DNA from: Candidatus Woesebacteria bacterium RBG_13_46_13
GTDB lineage: Bacteria; Patescibacteriota; Microgenomatia; UBA8517
Length of the DNA stretch: 34,456 nt
Reading direction: 5' to 3'
NCBI GenBank assembly: GCA_001791995.1
Contig: MGFR01000002.1
Span: 1-34,456 of the forward strand
In this document: positions 8,362 to 34,449 of the stretch, one piece after another
How positions within the stretch are numbered: the first letter of the stretch is position 1
How the letters are laid out: every line of letters begins with the position of its first letter
Program-made: the position numbers and the translations under genes
Notes under the pieces: generated by a model
Database searches by the model: none
Told to the model about the DNA's origin: nothing
The model's input: the letters and a program-made list of their open reading frames with translations, nothing else

Positions 8362-9642
8362 ATGAGATTCGTCAGTGGCTTGATAGGATTTATCCGTAGG
8401 TACAGCGTACTTTTTGTGCTGGTATCGATTTTCTTGATTAAAACCCCACCTTTCTACCTTTTTCCACCCATAAAGAGTTCTCTTCTAACCACCCACACCC
8501 TTTCCCGTCTTTTTATTCTTTTGGCCTTTGCTGGAATTTATTGGGAGGAGATAAGAGAGAAGGCTAAGCCTTTAGGGCAGAATGCAAAACTGCTTTTATG
8601 GTTCTTTGTCGTTTATCTTATTTTTCAATCTCTTTCTCTCGTCGGAGCCTCAAATGTCATCGGCTTCCTGCAAAGATATAAAGATGTTGTGTTTCCGGGC
8701 CTTCTTTTGTTTGTGGTTGTGGCCAGGAGGATAAAAAGAGAAAAAGTAGTTCTAATATTCCTTCTGGCGGCCAGTGTGAATTTTGTTTACCAGATGATAA
8801 TGTTTTTCTTACCCCACATCTTTAGAAGCTGGGGGAACGAATTGGTTTACTCCGGTCATTTAGAATTGGTTCTTATCAATCTCGAAAGAGGCCGGATGTT
8901 TATAGAAACGTACGATGAGATAGCAATACCGTTTATATTTTTTCTCCTTGCCAAGCATAACGGTAGGTGGGCACGGATAGGCTTGATTGCCATCTTTTTG
9001 ATGGTCGCGCTGCCCAGCTTTCTTTCCAACTTCCGCTCGCGTGCGGGAATACTTATCATTGCATTTTTAGCCTCTTTTCTCTTTTTGACGGGCCGGAAAA
9101 TTAAAGAGAAGATTGTCCTTGTGTGTCTTTTCCTGTTCTTGGCCATGACCGCGGTTATCGTTTCGAATACATTCTTCGGCTTTTCGGTGGTGGACAGATT
9201 TGCTCTTAGGGATACCCGGGAAGATGTGGAAACTCTTCTGTATCGGGCCGAAAACATCGGAACCTCTGTTGATATGGGAATTTCCCAGCCGCTAACGGGG
9301 ATAGGTTTGGGCAACTATTTTGATAACCTGGCTACGAGTAAAAAAATGAGCAAATCCCTTTTTAACTGGGTTCAGAGAGAGGCCGAGATTGCATCAACTA
9401 ATCCCCACGACATTTTTTTGCAAACCCTTTCGGAGACTGGAGTATTAAGCTTAATTTTCGTAATTATGCTTTTAGGGTACTTTGCTTATTCAGATATTAT
9501 TGCTCTAAAGTCTAAGGATTATTTGACCAAGGCTCTTATTATTGCCTTTTGGACACTTTTCTCGTATTCACTTTTTAATCCCACAACCACCCTGGGTTAT
9601 AACTCACTATTTTGGCTTTTACGGGGACTAATTATTTTATGA
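8362..9642 (+). CDS. O-antigen ligase/O-oligosaccharyltransferase-like (Wzy_C) membrane protein, type A copy 1
   Basis: Multi-TM; SNFRSRAG; loop R...I...MGISQPLTGIGLGNY; NPHDIFLQTLSETG. Paralog of 21950-23257. Confidence 0.85.
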   Translation: MRFVSGLIGFIRRYSVLFVLVSIFLIKTPPFYLFPPIKSSLLTTHTLSRLFILLAFAGIYWEEIREKAKPLGQNAKLLLWFFVVYLIFQSLSLVGASNVIGFLQRYKDVVFPGLLLFVVVARRIKREKVVLIFLLAASVNFVYQMIMFFLPHIFRSWGNELVYSGHLELVLINLERGRMFIETYDEIAIPFIFFLLAKHNGRWARIGLIAIFLMVALPSFLSNFRSRAGILIIAFLASFLFLTGRKIKEKIVLVCLFLFLAMTAVIVSNTFFGFSVVDRFALRDTREDVETLLYRAENIGTSVDMGISQPLTGIGLGNYFDNLATSKKMSKSLFNWVQREAEIASTNPHDIFLQTLSETGVLSLIFVIMLLGYFAYSDIIALKSKDYLTKALIIAFWTLFSYSLFNPTTTLGYNSLFWLLRGLIIL

Positions 9643-10628
9643 GAGTCATTATCGACGGGCACATGCTGGGCAGGAACGAGGGCGGTAACGAACGCTATGT
9701 AAAAGGGATAATTAAAGGCTTATCTCCCCTTAAAAATATTAAAACAAGAATTTACAGGAGCCACACCAGGGGTGTAGTCGCGGATCTTAAACGCGTATTT
9801 ATCGATTTACCGCGCCAGGCAGAAGGGTTTAGGGCCGACATTGTTCACGCAACCTACATCGGTCCTCTTTGGGGAAGAGGAAGACTGGTCTTGACGGTTC
9901 ATGACTTTCTTTTCAGGCGGAATCCCGAATTTTTCTCCCTCAAAGAGCAGCTGGTGTTTGGCCTGCTTCTTCCGTTATGTTTGAAACGTACCTCGGCGGT
10001 AATTGTGCCGTCGAATTTTGTCAAAAAGGAAGCCGTAAAATTCTACCCTTGGCTTAAAAATAAGGTTTTCGTGACTTACGAGGCAGCCGACGGAGTTTTT
10101 TCGTATAAACGGTCTAAAAAAGCCCGGAAGCCTTATCTTCTTGCCTTCAACAGTAAAAACCCCAAGAAGAATATCGCCAGGGTAATCGCTGCTTATGGGA
10201 TAGTTCAAAAAAGCCTTCCCCAGACGGAATTGTTGGTCGTCGGGCCCCGCGTGGCCGCAGGAGAAGGTGTGACTTTCGTAGAAAATGTCGGTGAGCGCAA
10301 GTTGGCGCAGCTATACCACGGATGCGAGTGTCTGGTTTATTTCTCGCTATACGAAGGCTTCGGCTTACCCATTCTTGAGGCTTTCATTGGAGGAGTGGCC
10401 GTCGTTGCCTCGGATATCCCCGTTCACCGGGAAATTGCCGGGAACGCAGCCCTTTTCGCAAAACCGAAAAACCCTCAAGATTTGGCGGATAAGATCATTA
10501 AATTATTAGGCAACCCTTCTCTGAAGGCAAAGCTGGTTCGAAAAGGAAGAGAAAGAGCGGCCACCTTTAGTTGGGAAAAAACCGGCAAGGAGACGGCAGC
10601 AATTTACAGGAGGGTTCTTAAGCCATGA
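9639..10628 (+). CDS. Glycosyltransferase family 4 (mannosyltransferase-like)
   Basis: MRVIIDGH, LTVHD, SLYEGFGLPILEA, VASDIPVHREIAG, FSWEKT. ATG overlaps the upstream TGA (ATGA). Confidence 0.92.
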   Translation: MRVIIDGHMLGRNEGGNERYVKGIIKGLSPLKNIKTRIYRSHTRGVVADLKRVFIDLPRQAEGFRADIVHATYIGPLWGRGRLVLTVHDFLFRRNPEFFSLKEQLVFGLLLPLCLKRTSAVIVPSNFVKKEAVKFYPWLKNKVFVTYEAADGVFSYKRSKKARKPYLLAFNSKNPKKNIARVIAAYGIVQKSLPQTELLVVGPRVAAGEGVTFVENVGERKLAQLYHGCECLVYFSLYEGFGLPILEAFIGGVAVVASDIPVHREIAGNAALFAKPKNPQDLADKIIKLLGNPSLKAKLVRKGRERAATFSWEKTGKETAAIYRRVLKP

Positions 10629-11725
10629 GAATTGCCATCATTGGGGTCCGCGGTGTCCCCGTCATCTATAGCGGCTTTGAGACGCTGGCAGAGAAGCTCT
10701 CCGTGGGTCTGGTAAGAAAGGGGCACAGTTTAACCGTCTATTCGAGAAGGGGCTATGTCAACCCCGAGAGAAGCTCTTACAAAGGGGTAAAAATAATTAC
10801 TCTTCCTGCCCCCGGAGGCAAAAACTGGGAAACTTTTGTGCACAGCCTCGCTTCGACCTTGCACGCCTGTATTAAGGGGAAATATGAGCTTATTTACTTT
10901 GTCGGGGTAGGCAGCACAATTTTTAGTATTTTACCCAGGATTTTGGGCATAAAAACCGTGGTCAATGTCGACGGACTGGATTGGCGTAGGGAAAAGTGGG
11001 GGCCAGTCGGGAAGGTTTATTTGGCTTTTTCGGAAGTTCTGGCCTGCTTTCTTCCCAACAGGGTTATTACCGACTCCTTATATATAAAGAGGTATTACCG
11101 CAGAAAATACGGGAAAGAAACCGTTTATCTGCCTTACGGCTTCGAACCTTATACGGGTAAAAACAGGCAAATACTGGCCAGGCTAGGACTTTCCGCGGGA
11201 AAATATATTGTCTGGGTGGGTCGGCTGGTGCCGGATAACCATACGGATGAGCTTATTAGGGCATTTAAGAGCCTTGAGACCCCCTTGAAATGTGTTGTCG
11301 TGGGAGATGATCGGCTAAACGGTGGATATAAGCGGAAAATTAAAAATCTTGCCGGGGGTGAGGCTCGCATCATCTTTACAGGCTTTTTGGACAGGGAGAA
11401 GTATTCGGCTTTGGTTAAAAACGCTTTGTGTTATGTGGAGACCAAGCGCTCCGGAGGGACCCATCCCTCCTTGGTCGAGGCGATGGGCTTTGGGACTTTG
11501 GTTATCTCGAATAGCCATTCGGCAAACAGAGAAGTTGCGGGGGCCGGAGCGATTTATTACCAGAAGGGATCGGTCAAAAGTTTAGTCAAGGCGGTAAAGG
11601 TGGCCGTTAAAGGGCGGGGTACGGCCAAACTTCGGAAGATTAGCCTGAACATTGCCAAAAGCAGATATTCTTGGACTCCAATAATTAGGGCATACGAAGA
11701 TCTGTTCAGCAGCCTTACTGGATAG
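10625..11725 (+). CDS. Glycosyltransferase family 4 (DUF1972/Cps2T-WchF-like N-terminus)
   Basis: MRIAIIGVRGVPVIYSGFETLAE, NVDGLDWRREKW, VGRLVPDN, GGTHPSLVEAM, YSW. Confidence 0.9.
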   Translation: MRIAIIGVRGVPVIYSGFETLAEKLSVGLVRKGHSLTVYSRRGYVNPERSSYKGVKIITLPAPGGKNWETFVHSLASTLHACIKGKYELIYFVGVGSTIFSILPRILGIKTVVNVDGLDWRREKWGPVGKVYLAFSEVLACFLPNRVITDSLYIKRYYRRKYGKETVYLPYGFEPYTGKNRQILARLGLSAGKYIVWVGRLVPDNHTDELIRAFKSLETPLKCVVVGDDRLNGGYKRKIKNLAGGEARIIFTGFLDREKYSALVKNALCYVETKRSGGTHPSLVEAMGFGTLVISNSHSANREVAGAGAIYYQKGSVKSLVKAVKVAVKGRGTAKLRKISLNIAKSRYSWTPIIRAYEDLFSSLTG

Positions 11726-12527
11726 AACCGATGACGAAGTCTTGGAAGTTGAAATTGGGTGTCCAAATTTCCAGGAAGGAGCCGCTGTTTAAGAGCTTAA
11801 GTTCCCCGAAATAGAAGGCCCCGTCCCTCTTCAGTGCTTTAATTTTGGCCTTTACGCTAATATACCTGACGGAATCTAAGGTTCCCGCATTGAAATTTCC
11901 GTAATAGTCATTTTCAATGACCGAAGTCGCTTTTTGGTTCTTGGAAACTACTTCAAAAACCACATTTTCACCGTCAAAATATTTATCGCCTATCTTTATC
12001 GCGTCATACTCCCAGGGGTAGGCATACTTTTTGGTTAGATAAACCGTTTTTTCCACATATTCATCGTTGAACGGCTCTTTGGATATTTCCATAATGGTTC
12101 CCGTAATCAGAGTTTTGTTGGTCTCAATTTCGATGGGTGTTCCGACAACCAAACTCGAACGCTTGAACGAATATTTTTGGCTCTTGTCGTTGTAGCTAGC
12201 CGAAAGCTTAACTGTTAAGAATATATCGTACTTGTTATCGGGGCGGGTTTTGTCGAATGAAGGGTAATAGCGAACCGAAGCTATTTGCGCAACCGGCTGT
12301 CCCAAGAGCGAGTATTCGGTATCATCCTTGGCGATTGCCCGTAAAAAGTAGGCATCGGGCCTTGAGGTTACTGACCACCAGAGACCTTGGGAAACCTGCA
12401 TTTTAATATAGACGACCCGGTTATTTGGCTTGGCAAGTTTTAATAAAGCGAAGAGGACAATAAGAGCAGGAATCAAGACCAGAAAAACGAGCAGCAGGGG
12501 TAGGGCTTTCTTTCTTTTCGCCGACAT
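11715..12527 (-). CDS. Membrane-anchored hypothetical protein (DUF4330-like), copy 1
   Basis: Basic N-terminus plus TM; two internally similar beta-rich halves. Clear paralog of 23208-24011 (QGLWW, VRYYP, YDIFLTVKL, VGTPIE, FNFQDF). DUF label is by resemblance only. Confidence 0.65.
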   Translation of the reverse strand: MSAKRKKALPLLLVFLVLIPALIVLFALLKLAKPNNRVVYIKMQVSQGLWWSVTSRPDAYFLRAIAKDDTEYSLLGQPVAQIASVRYYPSFDKTRPDNKYDIFLTVKLSASYNDKSQKYSFKRSSLVVGTPIEIETNKTLITGTIMEISKEPFNDEYVEKTVYLTKKYAYPWEYDAIKIGDKYFDGENVVFEVVSKNQKATSVIENDYYGNFNAGTLDSVRYISVKAKIKALKRDGAFYFGELKLLNSGSFLEIWTPNFNFQDFVIGSIQ

Positions 12528-12562: not shown

Positions 12563-13639
12563 ATGAAAATCGTCAGACACTTCGCGATTATTTTTACAAC
12601 AATTATCCTTTTCTTGGGAGGGATTGGTTACAATCTTCTGCCTGTAGAAATAATAGCGGTACTCATCTCTTGTTATCTCTGCCTTCTGGCTGCAGTTGGC
12701 AACAAAAGATTTCTTTTACCTAAGGGTTTTGGAGTATTTGTCCTTTTCTTAGCTGCCCTGGTGGCTCATTCGTATTGGGAAGAAAAAATCCTCGTTACGA
12801 ATTATTTCATCATGTATTTGGCTGGGGGATTGTTTTGGATAGCCTTTTATAACCTTAGGTCTTATTTCGAGAAATATTACGGCTTAATGATTGTTTTACT
12901 GGCAATTGCCTTCGGGTTTTTATTTTTTTTGTTCGCAAAAGGAGGCGATATCGGAACCTGGAGCCTGTTCTTAACCTCCTCAACCTACAAGAACCATAAC
13001 CACATCGGAGATATCTGGGCTTTAACGCTTGCGGTAATTTTCTATACATCTCTTAATAAGGCAAAACTTTGGCATTTCCTTTTAGGATTGGTGGGAGTGT
13101 ATCTGATGGCAATTTCCCTATCCCGTTCAGCCTATGCCGCGCTTTTTGCTGGCGTTATTTTTGTAGCCTTCAGAAAGGGATGGATTAAAAAAGCCAGATA
13201 TGTTTCTTTGGCTACCCTGACAGTCTGTGCTGCGCTTTTGGTTTATGCCGGAACCCAAAAGACAACCTTGTTTGCACGACCTTACTATATTCAAGCCGTC
13301 GTTGGCTTTTTAAGGAATCCCTTAGGGGTAGGGATGGGTAATTTCAGCATTATCTCTGCGGATCCAATAAATCACCTGCTGGGTTTTAAAGATTTCGCCG
13401 GTTTTACCCACAATATCGTTCTTGAAGTTCTGGTTGGTTTGGGAATTTTCTCTCTCCCTTTCATCATCTGGTTCTTTCTCGTCTGCAGGAGCGTCTGGCA
13501 GAAATCTAAAACCAGGCTGTTCTCTTCAATGATATTCGTAGTGCTCTCGGTAAACCTGTTGCTTGACAGTACTTATAATATTCCTACAATGTTATGGCTT
13601 TGGTTTATGTCCATCGGGCTTGCCCAGGCGGAAGAATGA
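12563..13639 (+). CDS. O-antigen ligase-like (Wzy_C) membrane protein, type B copy 1
   Basis: Multi-TM; NHNHIGD, SLSRSA, RPYY...NPLGVGMGNF, THNIVLE. Paralog of 29916-30980. Confidence 0.82.
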   Translation: MKIVRHFAIIFTTIILFLGGIGYNLLPVEIIAVLISCYLCLLAAVGNKRFLLPKGFGVFVLFLAALVAHSYWEEKILVTNYFIMYLAGGLFWIAFYNLRSYFEKYYGLMIVLLAIAFGFLFFLFAKGGDIGTWSLFLTSSTYKNHNHIGDIWALTLAVIFYTSLNKAKLWHFLLGLVGVYLMAISLSRSAYAALFAGVIFVAFRKGWIKKARYVSLATLTVCAALLVYAGTQKTTLFARPYYIQAVVGFLRNPLGVGMGNFSIISADPINHLLGFKDFAGFTHNIVLEVLVGLGIFSLPFIIWFFLVCRSVWQKSKTRLFSSMIFVVLSVNLLLDSTYNIPTMLWLWFMSIGLAQAEE

Positions 13640-14427
13640 AGGTTGATAAAGAATATTTTCTGAGCCAGGCGGGGTTTAGTGTCAGGGTGGTTTTTAAACC
13701 CACCGAGTTCGGCTACGCACAGAAAGTGCTGATTTCTTCCTTTCAAAAAGCTTGGGCTGGTTTTCTTTCCCGCCGTTCAAAAAAGGTTGATTTTACGGTT
13801 GTTGTTTCTTCGGACGCGGGAGATAAAGAAATCCTGGTCAGGGGGGGCAGGCGATATTATTACCTGACCTATACGCGTGATTTTGCGCACGGCAAAATCG
13901 ACACCTACTACACGGTTAACCTCAGGGGACTGGACCTTCTTTTTAGGGAGATATTTGCCTTTCTTATTCGCAAGGACGGCTTTTTGCTGCACGCATCAAG
14001 CGTGGTGGACAGAAAAGGAGCACTCTCCGTTTTTATGGCCCGTTCGGGAGGGGGAAAGACCACAACAGCCAGTCTTTATAAGGGTGGAGGCTATTATAAA
14101 TTTGGCGACGACATTATTCTTGTCAGGAAAATGTCTGGACGTTGGAAATTTTTCAGCCCCCCTTTTATTGAGAAAAACGAGATTCCTCGTAAAAACCAAG
14201 CTTCGAGGGCAAAGTTTTATGTAGTCAAAAAGGCGCTCAAACCCAACCTTGCTCTTATAAAGGAAAAGAAAGTTCTGCTTCCTTTTTTGCTTGGACAAAT
14301 ATGGCTAAACCGTGGTACTTTAGAAAAACCGGTATTAAAGACCGCTTTATTGTTCCTGATGGAAAACAACTTCTCTGAACTTGGGGTAGTCCTTAACGGT
14401 AGAAAGATGCGAAAGATTATCAAATGA
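13636..14427 (+). CDS. HPr kinase-related P-loop kinase (putative peptide kinase)
   Basis: GFLLHASSV, Walker A ARSGGGKTT, KFGDDIILVR. Start at ATGA overlap 13636; immediately upstream of PqqD. Confidence 0.78.
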   Translation: MKVDKEYFLSQAGFSVRVVFKPTEFGYAQKVLISSFQKAWAGFLSRRSKKVDFTVVVSSDAGDKEILVRGGRRYYYLTYTRDFAHGKIDTYYTVNLRGLDLLFREIFAFLIRKDGFLLHASSVVDRKGALSVFMARSGGGKTTTASLYKGGGYYKFGDDIILVRKMSGRWKFFSPPFIEKNEIPRKNQASRAKFYVVKKALKPNLALIKEKKVLLPFLLGQIWLNRGTLEKPVLKTALLFLMENNFSELGVVLNGRKMRKIIK

Positions 14428-14681
14428 GGCTAAAAAAAGGGGTTTTGATTCAAAAATTGGGCGACACGTTCGTTGCCTACGACAACGATGCCTCCGTAAT
14501 GCATGAGCTAAACGAGGTGGCCTACATTATTCTTTCGGAGATTGAAAAAAGAAAAGGCAAAAAGGAAATCTTACTAAAAATAATGAAAGCCTTTTCCGTT
14601 TCCGAAAAAGAGGCCAAAAAAGACTTGGACGAGTTTGTTCAGGATCTTAAAAAGGTCGACTTGATTGTGGAGAAGAAATAA
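14424..14681 (+). CDS. PqqD family protein / RiPP recognition element (RRE)
   Basis: 85 aa with three-strand then three-helix layout; HELNEVAYIILSEI...EILLKI...FSVSEKEAKKDLDEFVQDL...LI matches the PqqD pattern. Confidence 0.88.
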   Translation: MRLKKGVLIQKLGDTFVAYDNDASVMHELNEVAYIILSEIEKRKGKKEILLKIMKAFSVSEKEAKKDLDEFVQDLKKVDLIVEKK

Positions 14682-15805
14682 TCCAGTGCATCTTTTGAAA
14701 AGATAACCCTTAGCCGTTTGGATAACGGAAGGGTTGAAAAAACCAGAGAAAAAATTAACTTTTTTCCCGCCTCGATGGCTTTTGTATCGGTGTCAAAAGG
14801 GGAAGTACGAGTAGCATAAAAACCTGCCAGGCGCATAAAAAGAGGGATTCGGGCTTCTTTGGGTAAACTTAGGCCCCCAAAAAACTTGTTAAACACCAAG
14901 ACAGAGGGGTAGATAATATACTCATAACCATATCTCCTTGCCCTATTTAAGACGATATCCATATCGGGTTTGTCTTGGCCAATAACGTTTGCGATAAGCT
15001 CCATCCTATGGATTCCCTGAAAATTGTGATGGAAAAGGTGCAAAAGGAGGTAAAGGAGCAGATCTTCTTTTATCAGTATGGGGAACCGGTTATTCCCGAC
15101 TTTTACCGCTTTTGCATTAGAAAATAATTCACGCCCGTAGACGGCGATTGAAGGAATTAACTCATTAAATCTTAAGGCTTTGGTAAATCCTATCGCCGGA
15201 GCAAAATGAACGTCGATTATTACGGCATAGGGTTTTACCTTCTTGACGAAGGAAATTTGGGAATATTTATTTACCGGTTTATGCAAAAGTGTGGGTTCGA
15301 TTGCCTCATAACCCAGCTGCTTAAAAATTTTTCCGATTTGGGGAAAGTCGTGTAGTCTAACAAGGATGTCGGCGTCAAAATAAAGTCTCTTGGGAATTTT
15401 CCCCGAATAGATAAGTTGAATCGGTAACCCCTTAAGCAGCACATAGTCGATATCTGATTTCTTTAGCCTTTTGTTTAAAAGCCCGAGCTCGGTTAAATAG
15501 GTGAGGGATTGGGAAAGATAAACGTGCGAAAGCGCTATCATCCGTCCATTACGTAAAACTTTCTCGACTTTTCCCAAGATTTCATTTTTGTTTAATATTC
15601 CGTCGGACTTGAGGTTGTTGTCGCCTTTGGTAATATAATTTGCTTCATCGGGAATATATATCACCCTGTGGACGATGACCTTTTCTTCTCTCCTGAAAGC
15701 AACAACGTCGTTTACTTTGTAAGATCTGCCTTTTTTGATAAACGGTTTATCGGTGGGCAAAATTAAGGGGGCCATGCTTGTGCCGAAGGATAAAGGGTGG
15801 CGCAT
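14639..15805 (-). CDS. S26 (S24/S26) serine peptidase fused to NTP_transf_5-like nucleotidyltransferase, copy 1
   Basis: N-terminus GTSMAP...DVVAF...VHRV...ITKGDNN...ILGKV (Ser/His type, no TM); C-terminus VLLKG...KRLYFDADILV...IDVHF...LLLHLFHH. Confidence 0.85.
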   Translation of the reverse strand: MRHPLSFGTSMAPLILPTDKPFIKKGRSYKVNDVVAFRREEKVIVHRVIYIPDEANYITKGDNNLKSDGILNKNEILGKVEKVLRNGRMIALSHVYLSQSLTYLTELGLLNKRLKKSDIDYVLLKGLPIQLIYSGKIPKRLYFDADILVRLHDFPQIGKIFKQLGYEAIEPTLLHKPVNKYSQISFVKKVKPYAVIIDVHFAPAIGFTKALRFNELIPSIAVYGRELFSNAKAVKVGNNRFPILIKEDLLLYLLLHLFHHNFQGIHRMELIANVIGQDKPDMDIVLNRARRYGYEYIIYPSVLVFNKFFGGLSLPKEARIPLFMRLAGFYATRTSPFDTDTKAIEAGKKLIFSLVFSTLPLSKRLRVIFSKDALDYFFSTIKSTFLRS

Positions 15806-15943
15806 CTAACAGGTACGGGCCGCGAGCATGAATTCCGAATCGATAGCGCTTCTGACTACACTTTTCCCATAGAAAGAAATTATGCTGACCTTTGAGGATT
15901 TGATCTTGGGCCTATGGTAACGCTTTAGCTTTTCGCCAGACAT
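15806..15943 (-). CDS. Putative RiPP-like precursor peptide P2 (45 aa)
   Basis: Manual translation MSGEKLKRYHRPKIKSSKVSIISFYGKSVVRSAIDSEFMLAARTC*; its TAG directly abuts the peptidase-NTase ATG. Paralogous to P1 and P3. Confidence 0.85.
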   Translation of the reverse strand: MSGEKLKRYHRPKIKSSKVSIISFYGKSVVRSAIDSEFMLAARTC

Positions 15944-15948: not shown

Positions 15949-16089
15949 TTAACCGCCTGAAACGCCTATCGCCAAAAGATATTCCGAATTCGAAGGATTT
16001 CTATAGGAACTTTCTCCGTAAAACGAAACAGGGGAAACTTTTGAGGATTTTATCCTTGGCTTGAGATAGATCCTTTTGGGCTTTGTCAT
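15949..16089 (-). CDS. Putative RiPP-like precursor peptide P1 (46 aa)
   Basis: MTKPKRIYLKPRIKSSKVSPVSFYGESSYRNPSNSEYLLAIGVSGG*; ATG overlaps the upstream stop (ATGA); 5-nt gap to P2. Confidence 0.85.
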   Translation of the reverse strand: MTKPKRIYLKPRIKSSKVSPVSFYGESSYRNPSNSEYLLAIGVSGG

Positions 16090-16709: not shown

Positions 16710-16750
16710 TTTTTCAGTATAATAGACAAAGCTATTTAAATGCAATTAAA

Positions 16751-18352: not shown

Positions 18353-18384
18353 ATTTGTTATCTTTTGATAAGAAGGATTTACCC

Positions 18385-20600: not shown

Positions 20601-20642
20601 AGTTCTGCAGGAGGTTAGAATAACAAAACGAAGAAGGCTACT

Positions 20643-21895: not shown

Positions 21896-21949
21896 ATTAT
21901 TATCCTCTACATTATTATTGATACAAATTTTCCGGAAAGTCAATAAAAC

Positions 21950-26872: not shown

Positions 26873-27017
26873 AACCATCAAGCAACTGATTACTTTGGCG
26901 ACTAAGTCCAACAAGATTTGGCTGATACCTTTATTTTTGCTTTTGATAATAATTGCTCTCTTGATCGTAGTGGCTCAAATTTCTCCGGTTCCCGTTTTTC
27001 TCTACCCTTTAATATGA
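26865..27017 (+). CDS. Small membrane protein, DUF5989-like (50 aa)
   Basis: Manual translation MIETIKQLITLATKSNKIWLIPLFLLLIIIALLIVVAQISPVPVFLYPLI*; overlaps both neighbours. This family typically sits beside SxtJ and carbamoyltransferase genes. Confidence 0.75.
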   Translation: MIETIKQLITLATKSNKIWLIPLFLLLIIIALLIVVAQISPVPVFLYPLI

Positions 27018-27202
27018 GAAAGTTGGTCGGAAAAATAAATTCAATCAGCGTAACGCTTGTTTTGTCTCTATTTTATTTTGTCGGGGTAGGCGCCGCTTAT
27101 CTGTTATGGAGATTTGGCCGGATATTTAAGAAAGAGAATAGAAGTACCTATTGGCAGAAAAGCAAAAATTACAAGAAGGCGGATTTTCTTTCAGCCTACT
27201 GA
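27014..27202 (+). CDS. Short SxtJ-like membrane protein (62 aa)
   Basis: MRKLVGKINSISVTLVLSLFYFVGVGAAYLLWRFG...STYWQK...FLSAY*; ATG at an ATGA overlap. The ORF-track 26918 start is an in-frame extension. Confidence 0.65.
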   Translation: MRKLVGKINSISVTLVLSLFYFVGVGAAYLLWRFGRIFKKENRSTYWQKSKNYKKADFLSAY

Positions 27203-27204
27203 GA

Positions 27205-28926
27205 ATGTACATCTTGGGGATTAATGCTTTTTACCACGACAGCTCCGCTGCCCTGATAAAAGACGGAGAAGTAGTTGCAGCCGCGGAGGAGGAGCGCTTT
27301 ACTCGGATAAAGCACGACAACTCGTTTCCGTTTAAGGCCATAAAGTTTTGTCTTGAGAGTAGCAACGTTGAGATAGCCGATATCGATTTCGTTGCCTATT
27401 ACGAGAAACCCCTTTTGAAATTCGAAAGGATACTTGAGACTTTTATCGAAACCTATCCCTTTTCCCTAAAACCATTTTTGCAAAGTATTCCCGAATGGTT
27501 GGGGCAAAAGATTAAAGTAGAATGGCTGATCAAGGAAAAGGTGGGTTTTAGGGGAAAAATCTTTTTTATCCCTCACCATCTTTCCCACGCCGCAGCCGCC
27601 TTTTACCCTTCGGGCCTTAGCCGCTCAGCAGTCCTTACCATCGACGGGGTGGGAGAATACGAGACCTGCTCTTTATGGAGAGGAGAAAATAATAAGCTAG
27701 TACCACTAAAATCTATTATTTTTCCCCACTCCCTGGGGCTACTTTACTCCACCTTTACGGCCTTCTTGGGGTTTCGGGTCAATAACGATGAGTATAAGCT
27801 GATGGGATTGGCTGCCTACGGAAAGCCCCGAGATGTAGATAAAATTCACAAAATAATTGACTTAAAAGAGGACGGAAGCTTCCGTTTGAATATGGATTAT
27901 TTTTCTTTTCGGCAAAGCTTTTCTATGTGGGGTCCCAAATTCGAAAGACTTTTTGGCTCTCCAAGGAAGAGAGGTGCTGCCTTTAGCCAAAGGCACAAGG
28001 ATTTGGCCGCAAGTATTCAGCGGGTCACGGAAGAGGCCTATTTTAAGATTTTGAGACACCTTTCCCTGCTGACCAAGTCCAAAAACGTTTGTATCTCCGG
28101 AGGAGTGGCCCTAAACGCTTTGGCCAACGGAAAAATATTTGACAGCACTCCTTTTACGAAAGTTCATATCTTGGGCCCGGCCGGGGACGGAGGAACCGCG
28201 CTCGGGGCTGCCCTTGCCACCTACCACCAGATTAAGAGAAGGGCGAAAAGAAAAAGCTTGGCAAGCCTTTGTTTGGGGACAAGCTATATCCAGGAGGAGA
28301 TTGAAGATGAGCTAAATAAAGAGAAAATAAAATATCGGAAGTTTGCCGGAGAAGAAGAGCTCACCCAAAAAGTTTCCGCCTGGCTTGCCAAAGGCAAGGT
28401 GGTCGGCTGGTTTCAGGGGAAAATGGAATTGGGTCCGAGAGCCTTGGGGGCAAGGTCTATTCTGGCCAGGCCGTATCCGAGGGGGATGAAGGAAAGGGTA
28501 AATGAAATAAAGAGGCGAGAGTCTTTTAGACCTTTTGCGGGCTCGGTTTTACAGGAAAAGGTAAATACTTTTTTTGCGGTTCCCCAAAAGAATTTTTCTG
28601 CACCTGATATGAATTATTGCTTTGAAGTTAGAGCAGGGTGGCAAGAAAAACTGGCGGCAATTGTTCACAGTGACGCTTCCTGCAGAATCCAAACCGTCAG
28701 TAAGAATGACGGACTTTATTACAAGCTGATACACAGTTTTTGGGCCAGAACCGGGATTCCCTGTATCTTAAACACCAGTTTTAACCTTGCGGGGGAGCCG
28801 ATTGTGGAAAGCCCAGCTCAGGCCATCGCCGACTTTGTCAAAACCAAAATGGACTTTCTGGTTTTGGGGAATTTTTGGCTAGCGAAGAATTACTTGCATG
28901 GCAAGAAGTCTTTGGCTACCAAATAA
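27205..28926 (+). CDS. Carbamoyltransferase (NodU/CmcH family)
   Basis: YILGINAFYHDSSAA, EEERFTRIKH, HHLSHAAAAF, LTIDGVGE, EYKLMGLAAYG, GGVALN, GPRALGARS, KRRESFRPFA, LNTSFN. Confidence 0.95.
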   Translation: MYILGINAFYHDSSAALIKDGEVVAAAEEERFTRIKHDNSFPFKAIKFCLESSNVEIADIDFVAYYEKPLLKFERILETFIETYPFSLKPFLQSIPEWLGQKIKVEWLIKEKVGFRGKIFFIPHHLSHAAAAFYPSGLSRSAVLTIDGVGEYETCSLWRGENNKLVPLKSIIFPHSLGLLYSTFTAFLGFRVNNDEYKLMGLAAYGKPRDVDKIHKIIDLKEDGSFRLNMDYFSFRQSFSMWGPKFERLFGSPRKRGAAFSQRHKDLAASIQRVTEEAYFKILRHLSLLTKSKNVCISGGVALNALANGKIFDSTPFTKVHILGPAGDGGTALGAALATYHQIKRRAKRKSLASLCLGTSYIQEEIEDELNKEKIKYRKFAGEEELTQKVSAWLAKGKVVGWFQGKMELGPRALGARSILARPYPRGMKERVNEIKRRESFRPFAGSVLQEKVNTFFAVPQKNFSAPDMNYCFEVRAGWQEKLAAIVHSDASCRIQTVSKNDGLYYKLIHSFWARTGIPCILNTSFNLAGEPIVESPAQAIADFVKTKMDFLVLGNFWLAKNYLHGKKSLATK

Positions 28927-29864
28927 TTAAGAAAATCTTCAGCAATTATCCTGTGTCCATTCTCGTTGGGATGGGGATCTCCGGAAAAATGCAGCTCCCG
29001 ATATTCGGTTGGGTTAGTTAGCCCCCGGAAATCGTAAGTGTTGGGCCTTCCGGCGACGAATGAACCCACAATGTCATCGTAATAGGGTTCTACCGGCAGA
29101 AAGGATGCGATAATCAGGGGATTTGTGTAGACGGAATCAAAATCGGAAAGAATCTTCTTTTGTTTTTCTACGATTGATTCCTCGGGATATTTATCAATGT
29201 ACTGGGAATAAGCCTTATGCCAGGAGGCGTAATAATCGCCTTCCTCCACCGCTTTTTGGAATTCTCCGTTTTTTCTCATCTCGGCGTCGACATTTTTTTC
29301 CAAGGGCAAAATAAGCTCGTTAATCTGCAGCATATCATCGCTTTTGACAAACCAGATGACAACGTCCGGTTGATACTTTGCCCCCCTGAGTTCAAACCTT
29401 TTGGCCGCATACTGGAGATCGTAACCCCAGACCCCAAGATTTATGACCTCATACTTTTTCACCGCACTGCAGGTTTTTTCTTTGTTAAGTAAGTCTTCAA
29501 GGGTTTCCGGCCAATTATTGTCGGTATCTACATAAAGTCCGTAAGTCCAGGAATCGCCAAGGGTTATTATTCTAAATATCCCGGGGTCTTTCTCCGTTTT
29601 GTAATCGTATCTTTCATTTAGACTGTCGGAATTGATAGTAGAAATTCCCTGGTAGGGAATCCACGTGTTTGCTTTGTCCAGGCTATTGGGACTCGGTTCG
29701 TAAAAATAATCCAAACCCTTGGTTTTGGTCGAAAGAACAGATTCCTTACTAATCAAGCTTAAGAATATCTTGGGTAATGATTTTTTATAAATCGAAAATA
29801 CCAAAAAAGCGATAATAAGAAGCTGTGATAAGACGATAAAGGCGATGAGTTTTGACTTTCCCAT
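28890..29864 (-). CDS. Membrane-anchored SGNH/GDSL hydrolase-fold protein
   Basis: N-terminal TM; LGDSWTYG, NLGVWGY, DPHPNENGH. Confidence 0.85.
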   Translation of the reverse strand: MGKSKLIAFIVLSQLLIIAFLVFSIYKKSLPKIFLSLISKESVLSTKTKGLDYFYEPSPNSLDKANTWIPYQGISTINSDSLNERYDYKTEKDPGIFRIITLGDSWTYGLYVDTDNNWPETLEDLLNKEKTCSAVKKYEVINLGVWGYDLQYAAKRFELRGAKYQPDVVIWFVKSDDMLQINELILPLEKNVDAEMRKNGEFQKAVEEGDYYASWHKAYSQYIDKYPEESIVEKQKKILSDFDSVYTNPLIIASFLPVEPYYDDIVGSFVAGRPNTYDFRGLTNPTEYRELHFSGDPHPNENGHRIIAEDFLNYLVAKDFLPCK

Positions 29865-29909: not shown

Positions 29910-29915
29910 GATAAT

Positions 29916-30980
29916 ATGAAAAAGTTGTTACCGGTGTTTATTTTGGGGGTATTGCTCATACTTGGCAGCTTGGGAAAAAATTCCGTCTCGTTTTTGCTTG
30001 CCCAACTTTCATTAATTTCCGTTTTGTTTTTTTGGACTCTTTTTACAAGAGAAGCGAAATCTCCTCCGGGATTTATCCTTTATCTAATTTTTCTCGGAAT
30101 TGTTGTTTGGAAATTCATTTCCGGCTCCCGAGACGGCGGTGCGGATTATCTGTATCTTTTTGCAGGTGGGGGACTATTATGGTTTTCCGCATTTAATCAG
30201 AAAGAAAAGTGGGGAGGTTATTTGGAAAAATTGATTCTTGTTTTCGGTCTGGCTATGGCCGCCCTCTATGTTCTCTGGCTAATCTTTTCTCCCGGCCTTA
30301 TCCTGCCGCAGAGCCTTTTTACTTTCTCCTCCGCCTTTAAAAACCATAACCACATAGGAGACTTGTGGGCGATTGTGCTGTTGGTTGTCGCTCGTAAGCT
30401 TGTAGCCAAAGGCGGCCTCTATTATTGGTTGCTTGCCGTTCTGGGACTTATCCTGATGTACCTTTCCTTTTCCCGCTCGGCGGTAGTTGCTTTCCTTGCG
30501 GGAGCAATTTATCTGTTCGGAAACATCGATTATCTCAAGAGGAATAAATACATTTTCACCTTTTTGTCTTTGGGGATAACGGCGGTTTTTCTTCTAACCA
30601 GTATCAACAAATCGATATTTTTCTCAAGACCTTATTTTACTCAGGCCATTTCCGGACTAAGCAAATATCCTTCCGGGGTGGGAATGGGCAACTTCAAACT
30701 CGTCTCCTCGCGTTTTGATGTGGGAACTTTTTCCAGCATTGTCCACAATCTGGTCTTGGAGGTAATGGTGGGGTTGGGCTGGATTGGCGTAGTATTTGTT
30801 GTTTGGCTGGGGAATGTTCTTTGGCAGGGAGTGGTTGGGGCAAAGAATAGAATAGCCTACGCCGTATTTTTAGGGCTTACTGTTAATTTCCTTTTCGATT
30901 CGACCTATCTTATTCCCTCGATGGTCTGGCTTTGGTTTTTGAGTCTGGGTTTAAGCCGTGGGCAGCATAATCTTCGCTGA
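29916..30980 (+). CDS. O-antigen ligase-like membrane protein, type B copy 2
   Basis: KNHNHIGDLW, SFSRSA, SRPYF, GVGMGNF, VHNLVLE, DSTYLIPSMVWLWF; all shared with 12563-13639. Confidence 0.82.
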   Translation: MKKLLPVFILGVLLILGSLGKNSVSFLLAQLSLISVLFFWTLFTREAKSPPGFILYLIFLGIVVWKFISGSRDGGADYLYLFAGGGLLWFSAFNQKEKWGGYLEKLILVFGLAMAALYVLWLIFSPGLILPQSLFTFSSAFKNHNHIGDLWAIVLLVVARKLVAKGGLYYWLLAVLGLILMYLSFSRSAVVAFLAGAIYLFGNIDYLKRNKYIFTFLSLGITAVFLLTSINKSIFFSRPYFTQAISGLSKYPSGVGMGNFKLVSSRFDVGTFSSIVHNLVLEVMVGLGWIGVVFVVWLGNVLWQGVVGAKNRIAYAVFLGLTVNFLFDSTYLIPSMVWLWFLSLGLSRGQHNLR

Positions 30981-32169
30981 TTAACCCCTTTCTTTTCTGA
31001 TTCCGGGTTTTGATAAAAGAGCCAATAGCCAGAGGTATGAAACGCAGCGTTTTGGGAGACAACAACAACCTTAGCTTCAGGGACAAACCTGCGGGAGACA
31101 AAAGAAATACCAGCAGCAATCTTTTGACTCCCTGGAAAACCCTGTTGCCTGTGGAAAACGGGGAAATAAAAAGGGAGAGAAGATAAAGGGCATAGTCCTT
31201 TTTTCGGTTGGGAAAGGCCAGATCAAGATATTTTTCGGAAAGGATTAGGCCCAGATGCACGGGGCTGGGAACTCCGTACTTTTTGGAAAGCCTGAAAAGC
31301 CTTTTCCAGTCAAGACCCGACTCGGTCATTTTTTTTACCAACTCGATTCTAGATAGACCCTCGTAGTTGTGTCTATACCAATGCAGCAGAAGGTAAATGA
31401 CGAAAGTTTCTTTGTCCAGAATCTTAAACCTAGCCGACCCTTGCTTTACCGAGATGGAATTGGTGAAGAGGCTTTGTTCAAATTCCTTCACTTTCGGAAA
31501 CAGGCTGTTAAGATAGGTAAGCTTGGTGAAAGGGATTCCCAGACCTCTGTGTAAATCTACCCTAACGGGGAAAGGAAAAATATTTTTGGTAAGGGTAACC
31601 TCGGAGGCGTTTGTAAATTCCTTTGCGAAAAGGGTAGCGGGGGATTTTGTAAAACCCAAAGGGCTTAAGACCCGAATAACCTTTTTAAAGTCATCCTCGC
31701 GGACGAAAATATCACAATCGGCCAAAAGTCTGTTGGGGGGGGATTTTGCCCAGTGGAGGTAAGGAACAATTCCCCGCAGAACGATAAATTTTATCTTTGC
31801 CCTTTTAAGCGATTTTTCTACCTTTACCAGTTGGGATAGGTAAAAAGAGGATTGGGTATAGTAAAGATGCTCGAGGGCAATACGGGTGGAGCCCCTTTTT
31901 ATGGCGATAACCTTTCCGAGAATCTCGCCAAGGGCTATTTTCTTGTCCGGAAGTAAATTGTTGTCTCCTTTGGTGATGAAGTTTTTTCTGTCCGGGAAAG
32001 TGTAAACAATCCTGTGGGCGATGAGTTTGCCGGAGGCTAAGTAGGCTACGATATTGCCAGTGGAACAATCCTTTTGGTCTTCTATCTCCACCTTGTCTCC
32101 AGGCAAAAAAAGGGGGAACATACTCAGGTTTTGGGAAGTGTTTTTTAGCTGGCGCAGGGGCACTTTCAA
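30910..32169 (-). CDS. S26 peptidase-nucleotidyltransferase fusion, copy 2
   Basis: LSMFP...IVAY...AHRI...ITKGDNN...ILGKV; IVLRG...NRLLADCDIFV...VDLHR...LLLHWYRH. TTG start overlaps the P3 stop (TTGA). Confidence 0.83.
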   Translation of the reverse strand: MKVPLRQLKNTSQNLSMFPLFLPGDKVEIEDQKDCSTGNIVAYLASGKLIAHRIVYTFPDRKNFITKGDNNLLPDKKIALGEILGKVIAIKRGSTRIALEHLYYTQSSFYLSQLVKVEKSLKRAKIKFIVLRGIVPYLHWAKSPPNRLLADCDIFVREDDFKKVIRVLSPLGFTKSPATLFAKEFTNASEVTLTKNIFPFPVRVDLHRGLGIPFTKLTYLNSLFPKVKEFEQSLFTNSISVKQGSARFKILDKETFVIYLLLHWYRHNYEGLSRIELVKKMTESGLDWKRLFRLSKKYGVPSPVHLGLILSEKYLDLAFPNRKKDYALYLLSLFISPFSTGNRVFQGVKRLLLVFLLSPAGLSLKLRLLLSPKTLRFIPLAIGSFIKTRNQKRKGLISEDYAAHGLNPDSKTKARPSRE

Positions 32170-32303: not shown

Positions 32304-32304
32304 T

Positions 32305-32916
32305 TCAGAAATGCTCCCTCTTAATCTCTAAATTTATAGTATCACCTGCATACGTATCAAGCAAGTTGCTTGAAGTTTTTATGACCACATAGTCCGACTC
32401 CTGAAGGTCTTTTATGGTTGCGTCCTTGGATTCACCCCCCCAGGTCACAATTTTTACTTCCATAATATCCAGCTCCTGTTGGGTAAACCTGTATCTTAAT
32501 ATGGCTCCTTTTTCGTCCTGTAATCCCAGATGGTACACATATTTAACCCTGTCGATTTCCACAATTTCGGGGATCGCTATGGCGGCCAATCCTTGGGCGA
32601 CCGTGGTATATTTAAGCTCCCTGTAAAAGGCGCCGCTCTGTTTGTCGGGAGTCATCCTGTCCAGAAATTTTCTGATTGCGGCCACCCTTTCTTCGTTAAG
32701 AGGTTTGGGAGCCAGGTCTTCAACCCCCAATGGCTGGTACTCTTGGCAGCCCAGAAGGCTGCATTTCTGGAAAGGATTTTTATAAAGGTAGACAGCCTCT
32801 GCCGCAACCGCAGTAACAAGAAGTACAAACAGGCTAAGAAGAACTAATATCAAAACCTTTGACCCCCGCGGCTTCCCTTGGGGTTGTGGTGTCTGGACGG
32901 CAGGTTCTAAATCCAT
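32305..32916 (-). CDS. Single-TM membrane-anchored hypothetical protein, copy 2 (directly upstream of P3)
   Basis: TM ending VAAEAVYLY; C-terminus YVYHLGL..RYRFTQQEL..V..IKDLQESDYV..LLDT..LEIKR aligns with 16086-16709. Confidence 0.75.
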   Translation of the reverse strand: MDLEPAVQTPQPQGKPRGSKVLILVLLSLFVLLVTAVAAEAVYLYKNPFQKCSLLGCQEYQPLGVEDLAPKPLNEERVAAIRKFLDRMTPDKQSGAFYRELKYTTVAQGLAAIAIPEIVEIDRVKYVYHLGLQDEKGAILRYRFTQQELDIMEVKIVTWGGESKDATIKDLQESDYVVIKTSSNLLDTYAGDTINLEIKREHF

Positions 32917-32970
32917 TGTTTCCCGGCAATAATTATCTTAACAACAGGCGTAAGCTAAGACAAGTTCTAT

Positions 32971-34449
32971 TCACTGGTAGTTTGGAACATCGGCCGTACC
33001 TTTTACGGCATCGACAAAGATACATTTCTTGTCTTTGCATAAGTTGAGATATTGATAAAGCCTACCCCCTTCCAGGTTTCTGGAGAGCAGGACAAAATAC
33101 AGGGTATCGACCTGCCCGATATCTTTGGCAACAGACTCTTCTTGAATACCGAATTTATTATCGATTATGACAAAGCGGTGTTCCAAACACCCGGAACCCA
33201 GCCAAAAAGGGGATTTCGGAGATAAATCGTAGGCAGACCTGTAATAATACGCCAGGGGATAGAAATTAAAGTCGGCAGAGTTAACCACAAATAGCGTGTC
33301 GGGTTTGCAGTTTGTAACCAAAAAGTTTCTGATTTCGGAATTGGTAACGACTTGGTTTGGATTGTTATTTTTGTTGCCGAAATACCCCGATTGGAATACG
33401 TTTTGTGTTACAAGCAGGATAAAGAGGAGGGCCAAGAGTACCGACTTGCGTTTTGCGTCTTGAAACCAAAAAAGGAAGATAATCAAAAGCGAAATTGCGG
33501 AAAAGTTGAACAGGTTAGATGTGAAATGATATCCGAATTTTTTCAAAAAGCCAACGACGAGGATGTTTGAGAGAACCGTGAGGCCCACGAAAAGCCGGCT
33601 CTCGGGAAGAGCCGTCTTTCGAATCAAACCCCTTAAGGTAAAAAGCAGGGCCCAGATATCCAGTAAAAAAAGGCCTTTCAGGACGGTACCCAGGCGTTGG
33701 TTATAAAAAAATTGATATCCGGTCGATATTTCCCAGAAGTTTTCCCCTCTGATTCCGAAATTCGGAGTGAGCGTGCCGAAAAGGGAAAAATTTTTAAACA
33801 AAAGAAATACGATAGGAATAGAGAATAGAACAGTAAGGGCAAGAGCCCTCATCCCCGAACGGAAGTGTTCTTTATTTATCCAAAATGCTATTACTATGAA
33901 TAAAAACAGGCTAAAAATATAAAGAGCGGAGGTGTAGCTTGCGTATAAGGATAATGAGGCAAAAAGCGAGACCAGAAAAATATTTCTCTTGCCGCCTTCC
34001 CTAAAGGATTTTAGAAGGAAATAAAAAGAGACGATTTGGAGAAACAACGCCATGGGGTAGGGTTTAGCTTCCCAACCTGTGCGGACAAAGAAGGCGGATA
34101 TGGAAAATAGTGCGGGAAGAAGAAGGTTGTTTACCTTACGCAAGATAAGCGAAGAGATTTTATAAAGGGCCGCGATTGTTCCCAACCCGAAGATAAAATT
34201 AACCAGTCTTAAGGCCAGAAGAGTCGGAGAGGCGATAAGTATAAATCTTTGGAACATGGTAAAGAATGGGGGGTTGTCCTTTATCCAATAGTCTCCGACG
34301 ATCAGTTCACGAAACCTGTATTGCAGGGCGGCAAGGAAATAATTCACTTCATCCGAGGTAATTTCCTTATGGAATAGCAAATACAGTCTCAAAAAAATTC
34401 CTGCAAAGATGAGTATCCAAAGAAGGGTGGAGAATAATACCTTTCTCAT
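32971..34449 (-). CDS. GT-C (PMT/ArnT-like) multi-TM glycosyltransferase
   Basis: TM, then ITSDEVNY, DNPPFF, WEAKPY, many TMs. Paralog of the C-terminal part of 24048-26147. Confidence 0.82.
   Translation of the reverse strand: MRKVLFSTLLWILIFAGIFLRLYLLFHKEITSDEVNYFLAALQYRFRELIVGDYWIKDNPPFFTMFQRFILIASPTLLALRLVNFIFGLGTIAALYKISSLILRKVNNLLLPALFSISAFFVRTGWEAKPYPMALFLQIVSFYFLLKSFREGGKRNIFLVSLFASLSLYASYTSALYIFSLFLFIVIAFWINKEHFRSGMRALALTVLFSIPIVFLLFKNFSLFGTLTPNFGIRGENFWEISTGYQFFYNQRLGTVLKGLFLLDIWALLFTLRGLIRKTALPESRLFVGLTVLSNILVVGFLKKFGYHFTSNLFNFSAISLLIIFLFWFQDAKRKSVLLALLFILLVTQNVFQSGYFGNKNNNPNQVVTNSEIRNFLVTNCKPDTLFVVNSADFNFYPLAYYYRSAYDLSPKSPFWLGSGCLEHRFVIIDNKFGIQEESVAKDIGQVDTLYFVLLSRNLEGGRLYQYLNLCKDKKCIFVDAVKGTADVPNYQ

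Follow-up and report, generated by a model that had tools for sequence, protein, structure and literature searches.

Why should genes of a peptide-maturation pathway be interleaved with genes of glycan assembly, and do the two pathways share a product? The question is raised by a 34,456-nt stretch of contig MGFR01000002.1 (assembly GCA_001791995.1, Candidatus Woesebacteria bacterium RBG_13_46_13), which is called the window below. In the region under study, 8362-34449, genes of the kind found with peptides that are made on the ribosome and modified after translation (RiPPs) lie among genes of glycosyltransferases (GTs) and of Wzy_C membrane proteins. Our analysis of this region and of related loci indicates that the two gene sets work together. 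In the reading that we prefer, a leader-guided peptide-maturation cassette is co-transcribed with genes for assembly and ligation of an undecaprenyl-phosphate-type glycan, and peptide and glycan actually meet; arguing by analogy with known systems, we give this reading about even chances.

Two diverged copies of one module

Five gene types occur twice in the region, in identical order and orientation: ligA (encoding a Wzy_C protein), a gene for a DUF4330-like protein, ligB (a shorter Wzy_C protein), a gene for an S26-type peptidase fused to a nucleotidyltransferase (S26-NTase), and a gene for a protein with a transmembrane segment (TM protein). This repetition had been pointed out in an earlier reading of the DNA from its letters and open reading frames (ORFs), the sequence-only reading, and four of the pairs are clear by BLASTP: ligA1 and ligA2 (48% identity, E 4e-126), the DUF4330-like proteins (44%, E 2e-70), ligB1 and ligB2 (35%, E 7e-56) and the S26-NTases (34%, E 1e-63). 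The direct match between TM1 and TM2 is marginal (E 0.015), and a homolog search with TM1 in a large database recovered only TM1 itself. The TM pair is recognised via the family profile only: the profile of 58 external members matches TM1 with E 5e-28 and TM2 with E 1e-18, the two proteins are therefore homologous.

The gene labels of the sequence-only reading were supported by Pfam and NCBIfam, which identify Wzy_C, two GT4 enzymes, PqqD, NTP_transf_5 with an N-terminus of the archaeal-type signal peptidase I, Bac_transf fused to a GT-C-like domain, GT2, a carbamoyltransferase, an SGNH protein and PMT_2. It was also right that the inserts differ between the copies. Copy 1 has the GT4 genes and the genes of a kinase and of a RiPP recognition element (RRE), copy 2 has a phosphoglycosyltransferase (PGT) fused to GT-C, GT2, the carbamoyltransferase and the SGNH protein. 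Since there is no PGT in copy 1 and neither kinase nor RRE in copy 2, the two copies may be interdependent and probably act jointly, with the sole kinase and RRE supplied by copy 1 and the sole PGT by copy 2.

The duplication is old, as had been proposed. Identity between the copies is 34-48%, and a close relative, locus L145 (related loci are given here by L-numbers), whose NTase and DUF4330-like protein are 54% and 70% identical to those of the window, also carries ligA and the DUF4330-like gene twice each, arranged as in the window and with the same MreB-PEGA-WecG-HTH flank (HTH, helix-turn-helix). In neighbour-joining trees, drawn without support values, each DUF4330-like and ligA copy of the window groups with its counterpart in L145, and in all four families copy 2 branches off basally in the subclade to which copy 1 belongs. 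Judging from these data, an old duplication took in the whole module and the copies have since diverged in gene content. A recent tandem duplication is ruled out by the 34-48% identity and by the closer L145 ortholog of each ligA and DUF4330-like copy.

Linkage of peptide and glycan genes across Microgenomates

The linkage was followed in loci of +/-10 kb. In the forward direction, one genome per species was scanned with the S26-NTase profile, and 64 loci were found; the named hosts were Roizman-, Gottesman-, Levy- and Beckwithbacteria as well as further Microgenomates. Counts were made for the 25 loci that extend 6 kb or more to either side. An RRE gene lies beside the S26-NTase gene in 22 of these, a kinase gene is present in 20-21, a DUF4330-like gene in 18-19, a PGT gene in 13-15 and ligA in 13. 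Any of PGT, DUF4330-like, ligA and ligB occurs within 10 kb in 21 of the 25 loci, housekeeping neighbours (penicillin-binding protein, PBP, and gpmA) in just 4-6. In the reverse direction, metagenomes were scanned with the DUF4330-like profile; of the 80 loci recovered, the 26 non-redundant ones with at least 6 kb upstream were counted. The NTase was found in 20 of the 26, the RRE in 23, the kinase in 23 and the PGT in 20; at least one cassette gene (NTase, RRE or kinase) is present in 25, and the remaining locus still has the TM and precursor genes. The DUF4330-like gene is the gene most persistently linked to the peptide cassette. Unbiased clustering of all ORFs in the loci recovered the same core. 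In most genomes, then, the cassette is linked to ligase, PGT and DUF4330-like genes (21/25 forward, 25/26 reverse), and the separation that would have refuted the sequence-only reading was not seen. The cluster is a widespread unit conserved across Microgenomates, a point that the sequence-only reading had missed, together with the YcaO and dehydrogenase genes of relatives and the possible interdependence of the two copies.

The usual layout (pre, precursor; arrowheads, direction) is TM> pre> NTase> <RRE <kinase (<ligB) <PGT DUF4330-like> <ligA, with the PGT-(ligB)-kinase-RRE operon convergent to TM-precursor-S26-NTase and with frequent 4-nt overlaps. Operons were judged from intergenic gaps and overlaps; promoter and terminator scans performed no better than on shuffled sequence. 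When same-strand neighbours are read 5' to 3', a gap of at most 30 nt or an overlap was found for kinase and RRE in 30/30 cases, for TM and precursor in 38/39, for PGT and kinase in 9/12, for PGT and ligB in 8/11, for PGT and RRE in 12/24 and for ligB and kinase in 8/12. In the window the ligB1 stop overlaps the kinase start (ATGA, 13636-13639), and kinase and RRE also overlap by ATGA.

Adjacency is kept in rearranged loci, such as L004/L053 (NT> PGT> RRE> DUF>) and L125/L131 (ligA< PGT> kin> RRE> NT<), and also in the differently arranged L034 and L024. In L001, L078 and L081 the precursor gene lies between PGT and ligB. A gene for an AbiEii-type toxin with a small partner is inserted within the cluster in about 20 loci (e.g. 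L023, L064, L090, L094, L124), often between RRE and NTase; RRE, PGT and DUF4330-like genes are not split. Because the linkage is general, operonic and kept through rearrangements, the functional coupling of cassette and glycan genes is well supported, by an argument stronger than the duplication alone. The sequence-only reading had gone one step further and proposed glycosylation of the peptide or its transfer to a glycan or lipid carrier. Synteny, operons and rearrangements bear out its functional linkage; the putative glycosylation or transfer is drawn by analogy with known systems.

Precursor peptides and maturation cassette

Three small minus-strand ORFs lie between the TM and S26-NTase genes (the slash follows the Ala that ends the leader): P1a (15949-16089, 46 aa, ...SEYLLA/IGVSGG), which has a 4-nt overlap with TM1, P1b (15806-15943, 45 aa, ...SEFMLA/ARTC), whose stop abuts the ATG of S26-NTase 1, and P2 (32166-32303, 45 aa, ...SLLLA/GVVS), which has a C-terminal Ser and overlaps the start of S26-NTase 2 in TTGA. 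They align over their full length with 13 invariant positions and have the common pattern M.K.K..Y.KP.I.SSK....FY...R....SE.LL. An iterated hidden Markov model found about 50 distinct homologous ORFs in related loci, always in the order TM>pre>. The leader of this family is basic and conserved (MKK.KY.KP.IK.KKIK.N.FF), it contains Y-x-K-P-x-I, which resembles the recognition motif of lasso-type RREs (YxxPxL-type), and it ends with a conserved hydrophobic-hydrophobic-Ala site (LLA, YLAA, VYAQ), in keeping with the preference of S26 peptidases for a small residue at -1. Past the Ala site there are two core types, either Cys-rich with 20-40 residues, or very short tails as in the window, where they have 4-6 residues (IGVSGG, ARTC, GVVS). 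A terminal Ser is enriched among the short tails: 10 of 24 such precursors end in it (binomial P 2e-6), and 14 of the 24 end in Ser, Thr or Cys (binomial P 5e-7).

A short precursor, a conserved leader, a variable core and an adjoining RRE and leader peptidase domain are the general marks of a RiPP, and all are found here. Moreover, we take the small ORFs to be genuine RiPP precursors because relatives carry YcaO and dehydrogenase genes with Cys-rich precursors of the same family. YcaO is present in 26 related loci, a nitroreductase-family dehydrogenase in 25 and an ABC exporter in 12; 8 of the 26 YcaO loci have a detected Cys-rich precursor and 6 a short-tail precursor. The Cys-rich precursors are 55-80 aa long, with the same leader, and are accompanied by YcaO and dehydrogenase (e.g. 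L042 4820-6328, L057, L090, L143); two or three kinase paralogs are often present in YcaO-type loci (L005, L014, L028). These relatives look like an undescribed thiazole/oxazole-type RiPP family in Microgenomates. YcaO and nitroreductase profiles built from the relatives had no match in the six-frame ORFs of the window, the window subclade instead has ligB and short tails often ending in Ser.

S26-NTase 1 (14639-15805, minus strand) combines a peptidase of the S26B (Sec11/SipW) type with NTP_transf_5 (NTP_transf_5 7e-24, sigpep_I_arch/TIGR02228 1e-11); the matches of S26-NTase 2 (30910-32169, minus strand) are 1.9e-16 to NTP_transf_5 (PF14907) and 1.7e-10 to sigpep_I_arch. The family comprises at least 120 clusters at 90% identity, and its named hosts are Patescibacteria or Microgenomates. 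In 24 diverse members a His-Arg pair (H46) and a GD..D box are invariant, and the Ser of SM.P is present in every one of the 24 with the N-terminus called; these motifs therefore assign the peptidase to the Sec11/SipW (S26B) type. The family profile matches human SEC11A at 1e-7. The NTase carboxylates D144xD146 and D198 are likewise invariant in the 24. The AlphaFold2 (AF2) model has a pLDDT of 90, with LnuA, ANT(2'')-Ia and SipA as structural neighbours; for the NTase domain the nearest structures by Foldseek are LnuA and the ANT(2'')-Ia entries 5cfs/4xje.

The predicted kinase is probably of the HprK/PEPCK P-loop type. Its gene probably starts at 13636 (13636-14427, plus strand); the listed ORF (277 aa) begins at 13594. 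The family motif LHxS...G.SG.GKST...DD is the HprK signature, the family profile matches the HPr kinase structure 1ko7 (E 0.0024) and PEPCK (2.5e-4), and 6 of 13 family members match Hpr_kinase_C, the best with 7.7e-6. The window kinase alone has marginal matches only (HprK_rel_A 0.063, PEPCK 0.035) and no Pfam match of its own; its L145 ortholog weakly matches PF27840 (ScmC). The next gene (14424-14681, plus strand) encodes a PqqD-type RRE of 85 aa, a leader-peptide binding domain (PqqD 3.7e-11), which in NCBIfam is closest to the lasso PqqD chaperone (1e-6). TM1 (16086-16745, minus strand) and TM2 (32305-32916, minus strand) belong to a family of single-pass membrane proteins seen in 56 loci, with the gene always just 5' of the precursor. 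Taken together, the domain content indicates that the cassette is a lasso-type tailoring set, with a non-homologous S26B serine peptidase in place of the B2 protease and with no lasso cyclase.

Glycan-side and DUF4330-like genes

The glycan-side genes of copy 1 begin with ligA1 (8362-9642, plus strand, 426 aa; Wzy_C 2.2e-13), a member of the O-antigen ligase/O-oligosaccharyltransferase (O-OTase)/polymerase family. Directly upstream of it, and at the same place in L145, is the gene of a small MerR/HTH_17-type regulator (8113-8331, plus strand; MerR_1 8.6e-10, HTH_17 9e-10). Downstream, also on the plus strand, follow a GT4 glycosyltransferase (9612-10628; Glycos_transf_1 7.5e-24) and a second GT4 with a DUF1972 N-terminus (10625-11725; Glycos_transf_1 2.3e-18, DUF1972 9e-14). 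DUF4330-like protein 1 (11715-12527, minus strand) has an N-terminal TM helix followed by all-beta extracytoplasmic domains and matches DUF4330 at 3e-5, below the Pfam cut-off. LigB1 (12563-13639, plus strand; Wzy_C 1.5e-8) heads the ligB-kinase-RRE operon.

Copy 2 has ligA2 (21950-23257, plus strand; Wzy_C 1.2e-11), DUF4330-like protein 2 (23208-24011, minus strand) and then, on the plus strand, the PGT fusion (24048-26147; Bac_transf 1.4e-50, EPS_sugtrans 4e-55), in which the DE and PRP motifs are present. The GT-C-like membrane domain of this fusion, its C-terminal part, is 31% identical to the PMT_2/ArnT-like GT-C membrane glycosyltransferase encoded at 32971-34449 (minus strand; PMT_2 8.6e-7). 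The fusion is found in the window, L145 and L123; in other relatives (e.g. L006, L030, L085) GT-C is a gene of its own, part of a DegT-GT2-GT-C trio reminiscent of the ArnB/ArnC/ArnT logic, and a small PGT is present in 77 related loci. Next come a GT2 similar to polyprenyl-phosphate sugar synthases (26144-26872, plus strand; Glycos_transf_2 3e-29) and a doubtful gene of 94 codons (26918-27202, plus strand), which has one hydrophobic helix and no Pfam or NCBIfam match; it ends just before the likely start of the carbamoyltransferase gene and may encode a small membrane protein or be no gene at all. The carbamoyltransferase ORF (27151-28926, plus strand; Carbam_trans_N 9e-85, Carbam_trans_C 1e-61) probably has its true start at an internal Met near 27202-27205. 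An SGNH/GDSL hydrolase or acyltransferase with an N-terminal TM segment (28890-29864, minus strand; Lipase_GDSL 4e-6) and ligB2 (29916-30980, plus strand; weak Wzy_C match, 7.5e-4) complete the set.

All 60 ligA family members that were aligned share H349, R295 and G360. The His and Arg are presumably of catalytic type, and from sequence a ligase, a polymerase and an O-OTase look alike. LigA1 and ligB1 have no sequence match to any solved structure, WaaL included. The AF2 model of the DUF4330-like protein is confident (pLDDT 86.5); there was no PDB sequence match, and with the best Foldseek TM-score to the PDB at about 0.2 no meaningful fold match either.

Do peptide and glycan meet?

A pathway can be drawn up for the preferred reading, in which the matured peptide ends on the glycan. 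The RRE would bind the Y-x-K-P-x-I leader, and the kinase would phosphorylate the C-terminal Ser (or Thr), as PadeK/PsmK do. The NTase domain could then derivatise that phosphate or hydroxyl with a nucleotide or a sugar in the manner of PsmN, a kinase-then-NTase logic also seen in LicA/LicC and TagD, and the S26 domain would cleave past the LLA site, freeing the leader. The short modified peptide would be joined to a lipid-carrier glycan built by the PGT, WecG, GT4 and GT2/GT-C enzymes, with ligation by a Wzy_C enzyme, as TfpO/TfpM act on C-terminal Ser/Thr. A C-terminal Ser is acted on both by HprK-like peptide kinases and by the Wzy_C enzymes TfpO/TfpM, and here both gene types stand in one operon. 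In its full form, with the peptide Ser activated by kinase and then NTase, much as choline or glycerol is for the decoration of teichoic acids, installed on the lipid-carrier glycan by a phosphodiester or O-link and put on the surface by the Wzy_C ligases, the scheme is rather doubtful. If it is true, it would mean genetically encoded peptide decoration of a surface glycopolymer, class-wide in candidate-phyla bacteria, with the DUF4330-like protein as obligatory partner.

Several observations weigh against a meeting of peptide and glycan. Every enzymatic step is drawn by analogy, and the kinase is assigned on weak profile matches. The precursors have no signal peptide, and neither an exporter nor a Wzx/MurJ-type flippase was found in the window by Pfam. 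For the flippase, no such family was seen on any window ORF and there was no conserved candidate among the 40 commonest neighbour families, some of which are without annotation; it may be encoded elsewhere in the genome. Since Wzy_C enzymes work outside the membrane, it is hard to explain how peptide and glycan would come together. P1a (...SGG) and P1b (...RTC) lack a terminal Ser, and in some relatives the final residue is L, V, R or Y. The YcaO/Cys-rich loci, some of them with an ABC exporter, resemble ordinary secreted thiazole/oxazole peptides, which need no glycan. Finally, part of the synteny is perhaps gene order inherited in small, slowly rearranging genomes, and the trees on which the history of the copies was read lack support values.

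The strongest alternative is that two independent systems are neighbours here, a secreted RiPP with an antimicrobial or signalling function and a housekeeping envelope-glycan cluster, adjacent through shared regulation or inherited order and chemically separate. The YcaO, dehydrogenase, Cys-rich cores and occasional ABC exporter of the relatives would make a self-sufficient set of the thiazole/oxazole-modified microcin (TOMM) or linear azole-containing peptide (LAP) type; in some loci PBP and gpmA are repeatedly found across the NTase from the cluster, so there is some backbone synteny, and the missing exporter and flippase of the window also speak for separate systems. However, PGT and ligB lie within the kinase-RRE operon, with overlapping stop and start codons, in three loci precursors are embedded between PGT and ligB, and the linkage outlasts several inversions and translocations. 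The presence of the cassette in 25 of 26 DUF4330-like loci is far steadier than is usual for accessory RiPP clusters, whereas the backbone genes are much less constant (4-6/25). We regard this alternative as possible, with chances clearly below even.

It is improbable that the membrane and glycan genes (TM, DUF4330-like, Wzy_C, PGT) serve self-protection or help export, for instance by remodelling the surface of the producer, and leave the peptide unmodified. The place of the TM gene just upstream of the precursor is typical of an immunity gene, its product evolves so fast that the homolog search found the protein alone, and envelope genes adjoin a probable bioactive peptide. Nevertheless, a PGT with several GTs and two Wzy_C proteins would be a heavy apparatus for immunity, and the same core accompanies very different precursors, from 4-residue tails to 40-residue Cys-rich cores. 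Very improbable is the view in which translated precursors are not what the small ORFs encode, and the S26-NTase acts on another substrate, such as a protein or a glycan intermediate. The ORFs are short and two of those in the window lack the terminal Ser, but some 50 homologs stand at a fixed position between TM and NTase, with a leader conserved at the amino-acid level, tails that vary, close coupling to their neighbours and an RRE in the same cluster.

The preferred reading, with peptide and glycan joined, would imply a new kind of glycoconjugate, on the cell surface or secreted, in which RRE-guided chemistry is put to a new use, and it would assign a role to several orphan families (S26-NTP_transf_5 fusions, DUF4330-like proteins and TM partners). 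The cell surfaces of Microgenomates are almost uncharted, and the near-universal presence of the cluster where the DUF4330-like gene occurs in this group points to a core cell-biological role, e.g. in envelope structure or host attachment. The system is also a tractable model: it offers S26B as a putative cytoplasmic leader peptidase and a link to PsmN, whose chemistry is not settled, and its small genes could be expressed in E. coli and combined with mass spectrometry.

Flanking genes

At the left edge an ORF of at least 631 aa (1-1895, minus strand) runs off the window, and the first 2 kb, which have no Rfam match, appear ORF-free for this reason. It encodes two HTH_17/MerR-like N-terminal motifs, a Pro-rich linker, a TM segment and a long Ser/Gly/Thr-rich extracellular part. 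Upstream of the modules, 2056-8010 is occupied by housekeeping and cell-shape genes, which encode an M16 peptidase, a nucleoside diphosphate kinase, a 2H phosphoesterase, a membrane protein with a PEGA domain, MreB and a WecG/TagA glycosyltransferase, and adjacent genes for tRNA-Pro(CGG) and tRNA-Arg(CCT) were found by ARAGORN and Rfam at 4393-4543 (minus strand).

Between the modules (16685-21943) there are five genes without a family match, several of them with a signal peptide or TM anchor. One encodes a Cys-rich protein of 535 aa (18993-20600), homologs of which lie beside the cluster in L001, L067, L080, L081, L087 and L106. The gene at 21356-21943 has a weak match to the TM-partner profile (E 2e-5) and a 4-nt overlap with the gene of a Cys-rich secreted protein of 238 aa (20643-21359).

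Comparison with known systems

The closest likeness is to the tailoring enzymes of some lasso peptides. In the pseudomycoidin pathway the C-terminal Ser receives a phosphate from the HprK-like PsmK, and adding one or two hexoses to that phosphate requires PsmN; the DxD motif of PsmN is essential, and its reported structural neighbours are 5cfs and 4xje (PMC6993621). Some lasso clusters have a fusion of NTase and leader protease, and HprK-like peptide kinases act on a C-terminal Ser (PMC8498205). The PqqD-type RRE, putative HprK-like kinase and DxD NTase of the window thus resemble the paeninodin/pseudomycoidin set (B1 RRE, PadeK/PsmK, PsmN), and the window NTase has the same structural neighbours as PsmN, a likeness that goes through the published PDB entries and not through the PsmN sequence. 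Further similarities to lasso systems are the YxxPxL-like leader motif, the protease-NTase fusion and the C-terminal Ser, which is frequent in the precursors though in the window it is found on P2 only. The differences are the S26B nature of the peptidase fused to the NTase and the embedding of the cluster in PGT/Wzy_C genes. No Asn_synthase match, the sign of a lasso cyclase, was found on any window ORF or among the called L145 genes, and a leader protease of the B2 transglutaminase type was not found in the window, where the sole peptidase domain is S26B-type. Lasso cores have about 15-25 residues with Asp/Glu at position 7-9 to close the ring, whereas the tails here, with 4-6 residues, are too short for a lasso. 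We therefore rejected identification as a lasso peptide cluster, in the absence of cyclase, B2 protease and ring-forming core.

The likeness to TOMM/LAP systems lies in related loci, in which the same leader, S26-NTase, RRE, kinase and TM genes go together with YcaO, dehydrogenase and Cys-rich cores. For the window itself a TOMM/LAP identity was rejected, as these last three are absent.

On the glycan side, the Wzy_C O-oligosaccharyltransferases TfpO and TfpM transfer a lipid-linked glycan to the C-terminal Ser/Thr of their substrate, and TfpM has 420-440 aa (PMC9829042). The Wzy_C proteins of the window are similar to these enzymes and to WaaL-type ligases in their conserved His and Arg and in the adjoining PGT and GT4 genes, and ligA (426-435 aa) is also similar to TfpM in size. 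Unlike the pilins modified by TfpO/TfpM, the candidate substrates here are tiny leader-bearing peptides without a signal peptide, and no flippase was found in the window.

A further comparison concerns kinase and NTase genes placed within a glycan cluster, as in the LicA/LicC/TagD logic. In the LicA/LicC/LicD pathway of phosphocholine and in the TagD/TarI pathways of CDP-glycerol and CDP-ribitol, the kinase makes X-phosphate, the NTase makes NDP-X, and X-phosphate is moved to the glycan. In our case X would be the Ser of a ribosomal peptide, no transferase of the LicD/TagF type was identified, and the enzymes are not homologous to LicA/LicC.

In the literature that was searched, we saw neither this cluster nor the S26-NTP_transf_5 fusion, the precursor family or an RRE/kinase operon with PGT and Wzy_C described. 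RiPP enzymes and lipid-carrier glycan pathways are both well studied, but to our knowledge the two have not previously been found in one operon. The system appears to operate in the manner of a RiPP tailoring cassette added to a glycan pathway of the Wzy_C type, and if the peptide-glycan conjugate is real, it could be categorically new.

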